This document shows, piece by piece, positions 283-8,021 of a DNA stretch of 9,966 nt. The stretch lies in the UHGV virus genome UHGV-2186022; one strand, given 5' to 3'. The translations under genes and the position numbers were made by a program. Within the stretch, counting starts at the first letter, position 1. Each line of letters starts with the position of its first letter. The notes under the pieces were generated by a model. It had not been told where the DNA came from and did not search any database. It was given only the letters and a program-made list of their open reading frames with translations. This DNA is from a virus.

Positions 283-315
283 TGTGCCCCCATCGCTCTG
301 ATAGTCTGGTGTCGT

Positions 316-395
316 CGGGTCCTTCCTGGAATTATGGCCCGTTACGGGGCGACGACCTCGCGCGTTTTCACTATTTATGAAAATTTTTCGGGATC
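316..395 (+). other. lambda-type cos site, copy A (cosQ-side flank, cosN, start of cosB)
   Basis: Plus strand 341-395 reads GTTACG GGGCGACGACCT CGCGCGTTTTCACTATTTATGAAAATTTTTCGGG. This matches the recalled lambda right-end/left-end junction (GTTACG + GGGCGGCGACCTCGCGGGTTTTCGCTATTTATGAAAATTTTCCGG) with one mismatch in the 12-nt cohesive-end sequence (347-358). 316-324 CGGGTCCTT matches the lambda right-end ACGGGTCCTTTCCGG. Confidence 0.7.
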
Positions 396-494
396 CATGT
401 CCGGTTTCTCTGCAAGTTAACCATATGAAAAATATAAAAACATGCTTTCCATGAACCGGACATGCGCAAAAAACAGACACTAAAACCGGACATC
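396..494. repeat. three copies of a 12-bp motif CATGTCCGGTTT in the cosB position of cos A (candidate small-terminase binding sites)
   Basis: 396-407 CATGTCCGGTTT (forward); 453-464 GAACCGGACATG and 483-494 AAACCGGACATC (both reverse, 11/12 match). An A-tract-rich segment (408-452) lies between copies 1 and 2. Layout resembles lambda cosB (R sites plus IHF site) but the motif differs from the lambda CGTTTCC core. Confidence 0.45.
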
Positions 495-561
495 GAACCA
501 GTTAACCGAAAGTGTGCACAAATCACATGCATTGCTGCGAGTGATTAACAAGTTATCGGCT

Positions 562-996
562 TTACTGTTCTGTATCGGCTGATTGCTCCATGCTGGCACG
601 GCGAACGCTTACGGCATGACGCCACCCAGCCAGAAAGCCAGCCATTTTATTTCGTGCCTTGCTCACATCTTCCGGTGAATAGCCGTAAATCTGCAAACCT
701 TCATCAAATCGATGTTCTGTTTCTTCACTGGAGTACTCGTCACGCTCAGATGAAAGCAGCCTGGCAAACATAATTTTTTCCAGCGCACTGGTTTCTACGT
801 GATATCTGATGGCCTCAAGACGGCTTTTACCTGAAGACCAAAGCAATGTATGCCCGATGTGATAACCGCCAGACTTTCCGCGATCCGCATTAAGATACGG
901 CATCCCCTGTTTGGTCCATGCGCGAATAGTGGTTCTGTTAACCTTGAAATGTTCAGCTATTTCCTGCTGACTTACAAAACAAGCTTTATCAATCAT
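562..996 (-). CDS. Nu1-like small terminase subunit-like DNA-binding protein (144 aa)
   Basis: ATG at 996-994 with AAGG 8 nt upstream; TAA at 564-562. N-terminus VSQQEIAEHFKVNRTTIRAWTKQGMPY aligns by eye with lambda Nu1 KKQLADIFGASIRTIQNWQEQGMPV (winged HTH, GMP motif) followed by a GGKG-like G-rich loop. Shorter than Nu1 (181 aa). Sits between two cos copies. Confidence 0.55.
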   Translation of the reverse strand: MIDKACFVSQQEIAEHFKVNRTTIRAWTKQGMPYLNADRGKSGGYHIGHTLLWSSGKSRLEAIRYHVETSALEKIMFARLLSSERDEYSSEETEHRFDEGLQIYGYSPEDVSKARNKMAGFLAGWRHAVSVRRASMEQSADTEQ

Positions 997-1063
997 AATG
1001 TTACCTTAACTGCATGGTTAAATATTAATCAAGTGGTGGTGGTGTCACCTTCACGGAAAAACG

Positions 1064-1128
1064 TCATAAATAGCGAAAACCCACGAGGTCGCCGCCCCGT
1101 AACGGGTCCATATGCCGGAAAGGACCCG
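1064..1128 (-). other. lambda-type cos site, copy B (cosQ-like, cosN identical to lambda, truncated cosB)
   Basis: Minus strand reads ACGGGTCCTTTCCGGCATATGGACCCGTTACG GGGCGGCGACCT CGTGGGTTTTCGCTATTTATGA. The 12-mer at 1097-1086 is identical to the lambda cohesive end; first 15 nt match the lambda right end. About 85 percent identical to copy A over roughly 65 bp, in inverted orientation. Confidence 0.7.
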
Positions 1129-1158: not shown

Positions 1159-1572
1159 TCAGATGGTTTTCAGTATGCGATCGACGTCGCCTTCATCGCC
1201 CTGGTTTCTGCCGTCGTATGCCATGCCGGGTGATACGGCTTTCGGGCTGTGCATGTCCATAAAGTTTTCAAAGGCTGCGGTAAGCTCCGGCGCAACCTTT
1301 GGGCGCTCCTGCTCTATGGTCATGTTCAGGATTTCACGAGCATTATCGACGCTAATACATGGCACGTTTGCCATTGCACGTAACAGCGGCTGATAGTCGT
1401 TATGTTCATGAAGCGCCATAATCGCATCAGCGCGCGGCTTGTCCTGCTCTTCCAGTTTGTTGAGTTGATATACGGCCTCGTAGGTTGATAAACCTCTGTC
1501 AGCCATTGCCCGCGCTTCTGCTTTAAATTTACTCGCCAGCGGTAGCGCCATGATGCTTTCATTCGTTGCCAT
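1159..1572 (-). CDS. hypothetical protein (137 aa), last gene of the head operon
   Basis: ATG at 1572-1570 with AGCAGGGGAAACG upstream (SD GGGG); TGA at 1161-1159; 12-bp gap after the D-like gene. No family recognised; position after the capsid genes suggests a head-assembly or packaging accessory role (inference only). Confidence 0.6.
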   Translation of the reverse strand: MATNESIMALPLASKFKAEARAMADRGLSTYEAVYQLNKLEEQDKPRADAIMALHEHNDYQPLLRAMANVPCISVDNAREILNMTIEQERPKVAPELTAAFENFMDMHSPKAVSPGMAYDGRNQGDEGDVDRILKTI

Positions 1573-1584
1573 CGTTTCCCCTGC

Positions 1585-1920
1585 TTATCGCGCCAGCGGC
1601 TGAACGGATACGCCAGAACCCGCAAAGGCGGCGCATTTTTTCGCGTCAGTGTCGGCGCTCTCAGGCCAGTTTACGGCGGCGATATTAAATATCCCCGTCT
1701 TGTAACACTGTGCTGATTTCTGCTTTGACGTGTCCACGGGGTACGAGGTCAGATAAACAGCCTTCCCAGATTCCTGACCATCCCACGGCTTAAACTCGCC
1801 ATTGTCCGCCAGCATCAGCGGGGTAAATTCCTGAATAACGCCAGCATCAGCGGCAAAATGTACCAGCGTCGTGGATACCTGCTGACTGCCTGCAAATAAC
1901 TCAATGTATGGAGTGTCCAT
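1585..1920 (-). CDS. head decoration protein, lambda gpD-like (111 aa)
   Basis: ATG at 1920-1918 with GGGGGA SD; TAA at 1587-1585. By-eye alignment to lambda gpD: TPLML, WDG, YK(T/S)G(I/T)F, WPE(S/A)A and C-terminal KK..AFAG(S/T)..S(V/I) shared. Confidence 0.8.
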   Translation of the reverse strand: MDTPYIELFAGSQQVSTTLVHFAADAGVIQEFTPLMLADNGEFKPWDGQESGKAVYLTSYPVDTSKQKSAQCYKTGIFNIAAVNWPESADTDAKKCAAFAGSGVSVQPLAR

Positions 1921-1931
1921 AGAATCCCCCG

Positions 1932-2987
1932 TTAAGCAATTTTGACGGTAACAAATTTGCGAATATCTGCCGGAACCGGCTGCGGTGCGCTGTGCGTCTG
2001 CACGTACTCAATCGCCGGATCGCCGTCCTCAATCCAGTTTTTCGGGTAGTACATGTTTTGCGTTGCGCCTGTTCTTACCGCTTCCTGATCCATAATCGCA
2101 CCATAGGCCACCAGCCCTTTGTTGTTGGTGTTGCCCAGGACCAGCAAATCAGGATCAAGGAAATATTTTTCTGTGCCGTCGCTGTCAGTGTATTTGCCGG
2201 AATAGACGATAAGGGCCAGATCACCAAGATAGCCTTTAAAGCTCACCACTTCGCCCAGGTTTTTACATGCCAGCTCTGCGGCGGATTCTGAACCACGGGA
2301 GAGATCGTACAGTTCACGGAATTTTTTAAAGCTGCGTAACATGCGCCATACATCAACGCCCATAATCATGACGTTTGCGGGGCAACCTGCCTGATCTGCG
2401 TATAGCTCAATGTCATAGATTGGGTCGTGTATGTCTTTGTCCTGCTCTGACCATTTTTTACCGTCGGCCTGCTCTATGATGTTTTTTTCCGGTATCTTCC
2501 AGTCGATTTCATAGCGCTCTATGCCTTCGCCCTCAATGATGTTTTTTCCGGTCGTTATCGCATTCACCGCCAGCCATTCCACGCGCGCTTTAATGGCGTT
2601 TATCTGGCGGCGCATGTTGCCAGTAATCAGGCGCATACGGCGGTAGGTAGGGTCGTTAAGCTGTGCCGGATCTTCTCCAGCCATGCGCATTATTGTTTTT
2701 AATGGATCGATTTCGTGTTTTGGCTTCATGTAGCCAGGGCGAATAATGCTGGTTTCGTACCCTTTATCGCGCTGAACCTGGCTACCAACCATAGGCGAAC
2801 AAAACGCCGACATAGTGACTTCTTCAATATCCAGGTTATCTAACATGATGTCCTGTGTGTTGAATGTCGCCACGTTCGGGAAAAACAGCGTGGTAAACAG
2901 AGGGCTGAATTTAAAATCCGCAATATCCCCGCGATTCAGGTACATGAAAAGCTGGTTAGTGTTAAGTGCCGTTGCTTTGCCTGCCAT
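1932..2987 (-). CDS. major capsid protein, lambda gpE-like (351 aa)
   Basis: ATG at 2987-2985 with GGGGG SD; TAA at 1934-1932. By-eye alignment to lambda gpE across the length: FKFSPLF vs FKFDPLF, PGYMKPKHEIDP vs PGYVKPKHEVNP, EDPAQLNDPTYRRMRLI vs EDPQNLADPAYRRRRII, WSEQDK vs WSKRDK, VSFKGYLGDLALIVYSG vs VSYKGMYGDVAIVVYSG, LVLGNT, YPKNW..GDPA. Confidence 0.9.
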   Translation of the reverse strand: MAGKATALNTNQLFMYLNRGDIADFKFSPLFTTLFFPNVATFNTQDIMLDNLDIEEVTMSAFCSPMVGSQVQRDKGYETSIIRPGYMKPKHEIDPLKTIMRMAGEDPAQLNDPTYRRMRLITGNMRRQINAIKARVEWLAVNAITTGKNIIEGEGIERYEIDWKIPEKNIIEQADGKKWSEQDKDIHDPIYDIELYADQAGCPANVMIMGVDVWRMLRSFKKFRELYDLSRGSESAAELACKNLGEVVSFKGYLGDLALIVYSGKYTDSDGTEKYFLDPDLLVLGNTNNKGLVAYGAIMDQEAVRTGATQNMYYPKNWIEDGDPAIEYVQTHSAPQPVPADIRKFVTVKIA

Positions 2988-4270: not shown

Positions 4271-4494
4271 CTGTTCACCTTTTGAGATTTTCCCTTTTTA
4301 TTCATAATGTTAAGGGGTGAACAGTTTCACAAAAACTATTCACCAACTGTTCACCACTGTTCACCCTTAAAGCTCAATAAATAATCAAAAAGGTGAACAG
4401 TGAATAGTTTGGTGAACAGTTCACAAATAACTGTTCACCCTATAATGTACTGATATAAAAGATATTTATAACAGGGTGAACAGTGGTGAACAGT
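4271..4494. repeat. iteron array, putative origin of replication
   Basis: Nine copies of the 9-10-bp motif GGTGAACAGT in both orientations. Forward at 4316-4325, 4392-4401, 4411-4420, 4475-4484, 4485-4494; reverse (ACTGTTCACC) at 4271-4279, 4346-4355, 4356-4365, 4431-4439. AT-rich spacers at 4281-4310 and 4441-4470. Immediately downstream of the primase stop. Confidence 0.8.
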
Positions 4495-6838: not shown

Positions 6839-7067
6839 GGTGCGCCCCTTGAATATCTGCGGTAAGAATTTTGCCTGCCTCATTCAGCGCCATATCAGCA
6901 CTAAGTTGCATAACAGCCAGTGAGTGAGGAACGAAAGCCCCGGCATATTCTGTTTCGCTGGTGGCGTGCTTATGCGCCTTGTCTGCGATAACAGAAATAT
7001 CAATCAGCGCGTGCATCAGCGTTTTGATGGCTTCGGCGGCTGCGTCCGGACGGGTGTTATTGCACAT
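6831..7067 (-). CDS. hypothetical protein (78 aa)
   Basis: ATG at 7067-7065 with AGGGGG SD; TGA at 6833-6831. No family recognised. Confidence 0.55.
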   Translation of the reverse strand: MCNNTRPDAAAEAIKTLMHALIDISVIADKAHKHATSETEYAGAFVPHSLAVMQLSADMALNEAGKILTADIQGAHHA

Positions 7068-7263
7068 GGCGTACCCCCTGACGAATACGGGCAGCGAATA
7101 CCATCACGCAGCCATCAGGAGATTGCTGACGCGCTTCCTGTTCGCTGGTGGCCTCAATGGTAATCACGCGCGGTTGTGCCGTGCTCAGGGCGATAAAACG
7201 CCAGATGTATTTATTCAGGTTGTACGAGTCCCGCCCTTGCGGGTGTGTGGTATGATTTCTCAT
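7057..7263 (-). CDS. hypothetical protein (68 aa), first gene of the operon ending in the primase
   Basis: ATG at 7263-7261 with GAGG 6 nt upstream; TAA at 7059-7057. It is the 3-prime part of the 316-aa track ORF; only this part has a credible start. Confidence 0.5.
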   Translation of the reverse strand: MRNHTTHPQGRDSYNLNKYIWRFIALSTAQPRVITIEATSEQEARQQSPDGCVMVFAARIRQGVRHVQ

Positions 7264-7360
7264 AGCTGCCTCGATACTTTCGCTATCGTTGGTGGTTAGA
7301 AGCCCGTTGGTGTTGGTAGCACCTGCGGGCTTTGTCTTTTCATCGATTACCTCAACAAAG

Positions 7361-7441
7361 GTGTCAGCCACTATACTAGTAACAGGTGTCAGCCACGTCA
7401 ATAGTGTTTTTCCATTTTCTTGTGTGTATACTGTCAGCCAC
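7361..7441. promoter_or_regulatory. triple direct-repeat operator in the divergent promoter region
   Basis: GTGTCAGCCAC at 7361-7371 and 7386-7396, TGTCAGCCAC at 7432-7441. TATACT hexamers abut copy 1 (7373-7378) and copy 3 (7426-7431). Lies between divergent starts at 7263 (minus) and 7463 (plus). Confidence 0.5.
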
Positions 7442-7462
7442 CTAATAACAAGGAAATCAGAT

Positions 7463-7642
7463 ATGGCAACGAAAGCAGTTAATGGAAAATCCAAAAAACT
7501 TGAGGCACGAGTCCCCCATGCAATAGCTGACGCTGTAGAAAATTTAAAGGAAGAAGGCGAAAGCACTGGGCAATTTATCGTTTCGGCACTTGAAGGCGAG
7601 ATCAAACGCCGCCAGCGCCGCAAGGCCAAAGAGCAGGAGTAA
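7463..7642 (+). CDS. small ribbon-helix-helix-like DNA-binding protein (59 aa), candidate regulator
   Basis: ATG at 7463 with AAGGAAA SD; TAA at 7640-7642. KLEARVPHAIADAVENLKEEGESTGQFIVSALEGEIKRR fits an RHH pattern (beta-strand LEARVP, helix A, G-x-S/T loop, helix B) with a basic tail. Fold assignment is by eye. Confidence 0.55.
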   Translation: MATKAVNGKSKKLEARVPHAIADAVENLKEEGESTGQFIVSALEGEIKRRQRRKAKEQE

Positions 7643-7684
7643 CCATCACCAGCGCCGTGGTGTAAGGTATTACGGCGCATTGCT

Positions 7685-7873
7685 ATGCAGGACAACACAA
7701 TGACCGATAAAGAATTGACCAAAACATTATCACCGGCACGGAAAAGACGGCGCAGAAAGATAGAGCATGAATCAGAAAGATTCGCGCCATGTGCTTTTGC
7801 CCTTGAGCAATTCCTTAAAGAGTACAGGGAAAAGCGCTCATTGCAGGTATGGCAACGAACTGAACCAGACTGA
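7685..7873 (+). CDS. hypothetical basic protein (62 aa; alternative ATG at 7700)
   Basis: ORF with RKRRRRK basic stretch; weak SD for either start; TGA at 7871-7873; followed by a terminator. Confidence 0.35.
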   Translation: MQDNTMTDKELTKTLSPARKRRRRKIEHESERFAPCAFALEQFLKEYREKRSLQVWQRTEPD

Positions 7874-7968
7874 TTGCATTGCCCACCAGCCTGATAGCGG
7901 CTATCATCCCCGTGCTTATGTTTGGGATCATATACACATAAGGCGCAGCGGGTTAATTGTTCAGAAAG

Positions 7969-7995
7969 GCGGCTCCATATCGGGGCCGCTTTTTT
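7969..7995 (+). terminator. rho-independent terminator between convergent genes
   Basis: Stem GCGGCTCC (7969-7976) and GGGGCCGC (7982-7989), 5-nt loop, TTTTTT (7990-7995). The alpA stop is at 8022 on the other strand. Confidence 0.6.
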
Positions 7996-8021
7996 CGTGT
8001 TTGTCATATCTGTGATACCCG

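Follow-up and report, generated by a model that had tools for sequence, protein, structure and literature searches.

The closest described system is the E. coli satellite (PICI) EcCICFT073, which depends on the TerS of its helper (PMC6092414) and has two cos sites, both of them printed in the published figures (Fillol-Salom 2018 ISME J, PMC6092414; Fillol-Salom 2019 Mol Cell, PMC6739421). Its protein RppA forms a heterodimer with helper TerS, by which plasmids with phage cos are blocked and transfer of a cos1 plasmid is raised (PMC6739421). For transfer by lambda and phi80, deletion of cos1 lowers the frequency, deletion of cos2 raises it and the double deletion abolishes it (PMC6092414). When cosB-swap chimeras were combined with RppA, transfer was found only for constructs with the cosB of cos1 (GTGAAGGTGACACCACCACC...), and phi80 given this cosB became RppA-dependent (PMC6739421). 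According to this published work, cos2 serves lambda and phi80 only weakly as a cos site, and its cosB is not recognised by RppA. The authors called the cosB “completely divergent”, with no phage cosB identifiable, and asked why some PICIs have two cos sites (PMC6739421); the repeats in cos2 are neither described as R sites nor tied to another phage class in these papers. The review of Murialdo and Feiss 2022 does not mention cos2 (PMC9026076), and the searchable literature holds nothing on it beyond the two Penades papers (PMC6092414, PMC6739421). The other reference is the cosB of lambda, the R3-I1-R2-R1 array of gpNu1, in which the full R3 is published as bp 50-65 (PMC9026076).

The window analysed here (the whole stretch of DNA, 9,966 nucleotides) carries the same locus as the published EcCICFT073 cos2. 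Its positions 1-1200 are 97.1% identical to 1,387,455-1,388,654 of E. coli CFT073, and the window is a 97% variant of EcCICFT073. The gene order in CFT073 (int...pri...capsid-like genes-rppA-93-aa ORF, beside phoQ) runs from the tyrosine integrase to the 93-aa ORF and corresponds to EcCICFT073. The 144-aa protein of the window is the published RppA sequence; it matches PDB 6hlk (RppC) with E = 5e-31, and phrog_57 “terminase small subunit” matches its N-terminus. The site that the original prediction named Cos A is the published cos2, and its Cos B is cos1, which lies directly upstream of rppA. The cos2 printed in Fig S1A of PMC6739421 includes all three repeats, and the window also has G6A in its cosN, a change of its own. 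The letters of the window had led to the prediction of a satellite with two lambda-type cosN sites, differing cosB segments and a TerS-like 144-aa redirector, and this is indeed EcCICFT073/RppA biology as published (PMC6739421, PMC6092414). The headline idea is not new, since both the element with its two cos sites and redirection by RppA are already in print. The features of the locus are as follows.

313-327, plus strand: cosQ of cos2 (GTCGGGTCCTTCCT), a termination element lying outside cosN; agrees with the cosQ conserved among lambda-like phages and prophages, and is the cosQ in Fig S1 of PMC6739421
347-358, plus strand: cosN of cos2, the 12-nt cohesive-end sequence GGGCGACGACCT, with G-to-A at bp 6
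359-1085, no strand: 727-bp cassette between the cosN sites (cos2 cosB, rppA, cos1 cosB), found in both orientations in nature
396-407, plus strand: repeat 1 (CATGTCCGGTTT), exact; putative counterpart of R3
418-441, plus strand: A/T-rich spacer with the IHF-like core TAACCATATGAAA (418-430, bp 72-84); proposed equivalent of lambda I1, or bend site
453-464, minus strand: repeat 2 (CATGTCCGGTTC on the minus strand), 1 mismatch to CATGTCCGGTTT; putative counterpart of R2, inverted relative to repeat 1
483-494, minus strand: repeat 3 (GATGTCCGGTTT on the minus strand), 1 mismatch to CATGTCCGGTTT; in the R1 position
562-996, minus strand: rppA (c1503), 144 aa, TerS-like winged-HTH; DNA 100% identical to CFT073 rppA
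1033-1050, minus strand: cosB of cos1 with the proposed R3-PICI, bp 48-65, and ACCACCACC at bp 55-63 (swaps in PMC6739421, site proposal in PMC9026076)
1052-1063, minus strand: CGTTTTTCCGTG, bp 35-46 of cos1, earlier taken as lambda-R-like; without an exact CGTTTCC core and about 15 bp too near cosN
1086-1097, minus strand: cosN of cos1 (GGGCGGCGACCT), convergent with cos2
1117-1127, minus strand: cosQ of cos1

The three predicted copies are present at their positions, and a 10-mer core, ATGTCCGGTT, is exact in all three (397-406 on the plus strand, 454-463 and 484-493 on the minus strand). None of 300 shuffled windows gave a 10-mer triple within 100 nt, while the 12-mer with at most 2 mismatches has 4 matches in the window against 0.98 expected. 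We numbered cos2 with bp 1 of the cohesive end at window position 347; as the cohesive end is 347-358, the copies fall at bp 50-61, 107-118 and 137-148. In lambda, the 12-mer core of R3 (CGTTTCCGTTCT) begins at bp 53 and the inverted R2 at bp 109. The predicted agreement with lambda for about 45 bp past cosN, followed by divergence, was also borne out, with 41 of 45 positions identical over the first 45 bp and 4 of 25 over the next 25.

The layout of cos2 resembles lambda cosB in several respects: the array starts directly after cosN, with a first site at bp 50 and an inverted second one at about bp 107-118, an A/T-rich IHF-like spacer stands between them, a third site comes after, and in phages of the class described below the terS gene is next. 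It differs in that the repeat is ATGTCCGGTT and not CGTTTCC, a core that is absent from 300-1150, as expected from the claim that the repeat is unlike lambda R. The third copy is oriented as R2 here, not as R3, and the cognate TerS has an N-terminal domain that is unmatched to Nu1 by BLAST and Pfam. The A-rich spacer between copies 1 and 2 was likewise found as predicted. Its element TAACCATATGAAA has 2 mismatches to the IHF consensus YAANNNNTTGATW, the same score as lambda I1 (bp 74-86), and is followed by an A-tract, still between repeats 1 and 2. A diverged relative has TAACTATTTGAAA at this spot (by eye 1 mismatch), and the spacer 418-441 shows few variable columns among phage cos regions. 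We propose it as a candidate IHF site or bend, equivalent to lambda I1.

The cosN of cos2 carries a change that is private to this window, G6A at bp 6 (window 352); GGGCGGCGACCT stands there in CFT073, in other PICIs and in nearly all phage and prophage copies compared. Read from the sequence, bp 6 and 7 appear to be the central symmetric pair of cosN, so cos2 may be nicked less well in this copy, and its cos2 ends would mismatch the cos1 ends.

To find the origin of the repeats, we compared the locus with phages and prophages. Window 315-493, that is cosQ, cosN and the repeats, is 92.7% identical to the region directly upstream of the Nu1 gene in five PhiR12 phages. The homologous stretch covers exactly cosQ to repeat 3 and no more; a literature search on the PhiR12 phages found no paper. 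All non-PICI E. coli matches (4 of 4) are lambdoid prophages, from an O104:H4 strain, O55:H7, O2:H6 and strain AR_0086, in which the repeats end about 49 nt before a terS gene for a 169-aa protein (TerS169), with terL, W and portal further downstream. In IMG/VR, a scan for the repeat pattern found 120 occurrences, 107 of which are followed by terS169, while 5 are in RppA PICIs, 7 in rppA-less PICI relatives and 1 on a sequence too short for assignment. A second sample was selected by terminase instead of repeats, to avoid repeat-based selection, and comprised loci with enough upstream DNA. In these viral contigs the sites at bp 51 (plus) and 108 (minus) are present in 77 of 77 loci, nearly all of which also have those at 138 (minus) and 146 (plus, 1 mismatch). 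Among the 41 distinct upstream sequences in the terminase-selected set, R3 has 0 of 12 variable columns and the spacer at bp 119-136 has 18 of 18. The phages contain a fourth overlapping copy, ATGACCGGTT (plus), after repeat 3, which is decayed in the PICI. The terminase-based scan of species-representative genomes gave 4 loci, and a query of cos plus terS169 was covered by at least 80% in 1141 of 5426 complete E. coli genomes (about 21%).

TerS169 is related to Nu1 in its C-terminal half, which is 46% identical to Nu1 residues 86-177, and the Pfam family Phage_Nu1 covers residues 49-150 only. Its N-terminus (VATQTEVARHLSLTDRQLRRLQKLPGAP...) is in register with the HTH of Nu1 and RppA and has a different recognition helix; on this N-terminus Pfam gave nothing beyond a sub-threshold Sigma70_r3. 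As for co-variation of the TerS helix with the R site, all TerS169 variants (88-100% identity) carry identical repeats. Similar-looking repeats of another class are known from the phage 21-type cosB, as in CFT073 phi4, whose R sites CGTGTCGGTACT, CATGTCGGAC and CATGTCGGGCC share CATGTC..GG and the layout with the repeats here. The core is off by one extra base, however (CATGTCCGG versus CATGTCGG), and the phi4 TerS (MKVNKKRLAEIF...) is closely related to Nu1, unlike the 169-aa TerS. Our first suspicion, that the repeats are phage 21 R sites, was dropped because the phi4 cos shows the 21-type to be CRTGTCGG, one base shorter and with a Nu1-like TerS.

From position, conservation and gene neighbourhood, the repeats are very probably terminase-binding sites, namely R3, R2 and R1 in a cosB of the lambda type that was captured from a TerS169-class phage. 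The packaging-specificity class to which they would belong differs from those of lambda, phi80 and phage 21, and its members include PhiR12_1, the O104:H4 and O55:H7 prophages and the potB prophage of CFT073. As judged from the extent of the homology, the satellite has evidently captured exactly the cosQ-cosN-cosB module as a second cos site. In the window, the repeat region is not followed by terS; the 3' end of rppA, on the opposite strand, stands there instead, so that this copy would be a captured site without its gene. The repeats had been supposed to be private to the satellite; instead, a large family of lambdoid prophages, which has a 169-aa TerS of its own, carries them as its conserved cosB.

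The assignment of the two sites in the original prediction, with a private motif at cos2 and a helper-like one at cos1, is reversed. The supposed single lambda-R-like element CGTTTTTCCGTG of cos1 (reverse complement of 1052-1063) is present as a sequence, but the role given to it did not hold, as it lies at bp 35-46 and not in the R3 position. By their primer junctions, the published chimeras define a functional cos1 cosB from GTGAAGGTGACACCACC onward (PMC6739421); this excludes CGTTTTTCCGTG from the RppA-dependent segment, and CGTTTTTCCGTG is therefore not the determinant. The RppA-dependent cos1 with its R3-PICI (Murialdo and Feiss 2022, PMC9026076) belongs to the same cassette and has the same cosQ-cosN core as cos2, but it contains a single proposed site, ACCACCACC, has no repeats and needs RppA. 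At bp 55-63, cos2 has ATGTCCGGT and not the ACCACCACC motif of the RppA-dependent cosB.

Relatives of the satellite show how the repeats are kept and how they are combined. Between the window and an 86%-identical PICI relative (L019), the three repeat cores have 0 of 30 mismatches while the rest of cos2 has 22 of 106 (Fisher p = 0.0024). In this relative (L019 13581-13910; also L027, L038 and L062) a single cos site consists of cosQ, a variant cohesive end (GGGCGGGAGCGG) and the triple repeat, after which the phage gene for the 169-aa TerS is present with its first 24 codons. Judged by its sequence, this terS remnant is a clear, direct trace of capture from a phage. The rppA-less relatives (L034 9799-9970; L047; L129 and L130 1201-1430) have a third cosB type opposite the triple-repeat cosB, in which the repeat is GGTTGTTGT and lies at bp 49-60 and at about bp 110-118. 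In E. albertii and Escherichia sp. prophages, a nearly identical cosB of this third type stands upstream of a chimeric TerS, whose N-terminus is new and whose C-terminus is the same. The triple-repeat block is thus kept in three different cassette types, and the different cosB pairings make the inter-cos cassette look modular, with cosQ outside each cosN and a swappable cosB inside.

With a probability of about 65%, we consider cos2 to be a packaging entry for TerS169-class helpers that would not require RppA. We infer both the binding of TerS169 to the repeats and the RppA-independent packaging. When a helper of this class grows, TerS dimers would occupy repeat 1 and, beyond a bend induced by IHF or the A-tract, the inverted repeat 2. 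Repeat 3 would stabilise the TerS169-cos2 complex, and the TerS C-terminus would bring TerL, leading to the nick at cosN 347-358 and to packaging that proceeds rightward from cos2 without RppA. For helpers that could not read the repeats (lambda, phi80 and the 21-like phi4), the RppA-TerS heterodimer would use cos1, which is the published step. Two convergent cos sites with different cosB would thus give two entry routes and a wider helper range. The presence of the triple-repeat cos as the sole cos site in the L019-type relative speaks for an entry function of cos2, and the finding that RppA does not act through the cos2 cosB is consistent with it (PMC6739421). Against it stand the rise of lambda and phi80 transfer upon cos2 deletion (PMC6092414), the loss of the fourth overlapping phage repeat in PICI copies, and G6A at the central symmetric position of cosN in this window.

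Other explanations account for part of these observations. The original prediction took the repeats as a private motif to which the 144-aa RppA would bind, with or without helper TerS, and their place in the cosB position, the TerS-like wHTH in RppA and their unlikeness to lambda R all fit this idea. It is now largely refuted and very improbable: in the published swaps RppA acts through the cosB of cos1, transfer with RppA occurs only through that cosB and cos2 is not essential (PMC6739421, PMC6092414), 107 of the 120 motif occurrences are in phages with their own TerS and without rpp, and the repeats are retained in PICI relatives that lost rppA. It is also possible, though we think it doubtful, that cos2 is a functionless relic of recombination between a satellite and a TerS169-class prophage that does little harm. 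Transfer does not drop on cos2 deletion (PMC6092414), the fourth repeat is lost, cosN is changed by G6A in this window, and the terS remnant in a relative indicates a recombinational origin, all of which a relic would explain. It would not explain why the homology block is exactly the functional module from cosQ to the last repeat, why the repeat cores stay unchanged between diverged PICI lineages while the positions around them change, or why the block recurs in three cassette types and is the sole cos site in one lineage.

Less likely still is a role of cos2 mainly in interference, in which multicopy R sites would titrate the TerS169-class terminase or provoke unproductive cutting and so lower the helper yield. 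PICIs in general interfere with helper packaging, the cos2 cosB is the cognate site of a common prophage class, and lambda transfer is lowered by cos2 (PMC6092414). Nevertheless, a full cosQ-cosN-cosB in working geometry would be packaged and not just bound, and one lineage uses the triple-repeat module as its only cos site. The reading of cos2 as an entry for TerS169-class helpers gives a concrete answer to what the discoverers had asked, namely why there are two different cos sites in some PICIs: one would be RppA-specific, and the other would be a ready-made cosB from prophages in about one fifth of complete E. coli genomes. If this is true, the helper range of virulence-associated satellites is wider than the set of lambda, phi80 and phi4 tested so far and is set by swappable cosB modules, and the 169-aa TerS with its ATGTCCGGTT sites forms a further specificity class for lambda-type packaging recognition.

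In CFT073 itself, the PICI has a lambda-like prophage on each side, and the two belong to different packaging classes. The potB prophage (L213 20504-21238) encodes the same 169-aa TerS (WP_000235436) and has a ATGTCCGGTT-type cosB, while the icd prophage, which is phi4 (L212 26680-27481), has a phage 21-type TerS and CRTGTCGG sites and is the natural helper of EcCICFT073. Transfer of the PICI in CFT073 is unchanged by deletion of prophages other than #4 and is abolished by deletion of #4, which speaks against a role of cos2 in this strain, as the resident potB prophage is not needed for transfer and does not suffice for it; since loss of #4 also removes PICI induction, packaging by potB was never isolated in these deletions. 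A composite query of rppA and the terS169 N-terminus was matched a second time in 40 of the best 60 records with rppA, beside an overall terS169 frequency of about 21%; this count ignores clonal kinship, and the second match was identified in CFT073 alone.

The cassette between the two cosN sites was also found inverted. The two convergent cos sites form a 78-nt inverted repeat (79% complementary). In E. coli CUVET16-394, at the same chromosomal site (L211 1660-2386), the cassette agrees with the reverse complement of window 359-1085 at 726 of 727 positions, between colinear flanks. A synthetic inverted junction was matched over its full length in 15 E. coli genomes, while 68 have the orientation of the window. 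The rppA-less cassette is flipped too, with agreement at 510 of 512 positions (L034 9812-10323 versus L047 9526-10037), and the breakpoints in this pair (L034 versus L047 and L093) fall within a 24-bp core, CCGTTACG-cosN-CGCG; for the inverted rppA cassette the breakpoint cannot be placed, because both outer arms are of the same type in L211.

If both cosN sites were cut, both ends of the freed 727-bp segment would have an identical 5'-GGGCGGCGACCT overhang, which would allow re-annealing in both orientations. We tentatively propose, while thinking it on the whole unlikely, that the helper terminase itself flips the cos-bounded cassette, which together with cosB swapping from other phage classes would be an undescribed way of diversifying helper range. 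The alternative is homologous recombination across the inverted repeat, and an exchange of outer arms in L008 and L211 indicates that recombination occurs too. Flipping by terminase, if true, would reshuffle the pairing of cosB with its flanks and the direction in which the satellite enters the capsid; the precise inter-cos inversion is in any case an unexpected structural polymorphism deserving a mechanism. The R sites of a separate, common lambdoid TerS class, the mixed-class cosB modules in PICIs and the inversion appear to be new, as they were not found in the searchable literature.

Several other features of the window were recorded. A 53-aa ORF across the repeats (371-532, minus strand; old c1504) is probably not a gene. 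The current RefSeq annotation no longer lists it, and a published screen saw no phenotype for its clone; PhiR12_1 has a hypothetical protein annotated over this stretch. The Rfam scan of the window gave no RNA family, and the promoter and terminator scan of 250-1250 gave nothing above shuffle expectation. Three products are encoded at 1159-2987 (minus strand): a major capsid protein of 351 aa similar to lambda E, a D-like decoration protein of 111 aa, and a protein of 137 aa that looks like the C-terminal part of head maturation proteases. According to the 2018 paper, the element is without genes for capsid morphogenesis, and no phenotype was seen for c1499 or c1500 (PMC6092414). At 4316-4494, intergenic and just downstream of the gene for a 604-aa primase, there are 8-9 copies of ACTGTTCACC in both orientations, which are probably the replication-origin iterons of the satellite. 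Three copies of GTGGCTGACA lie within 80 nt at 7362-7441 (minus strand), in or near a 316-aa ORF (7057-8007).
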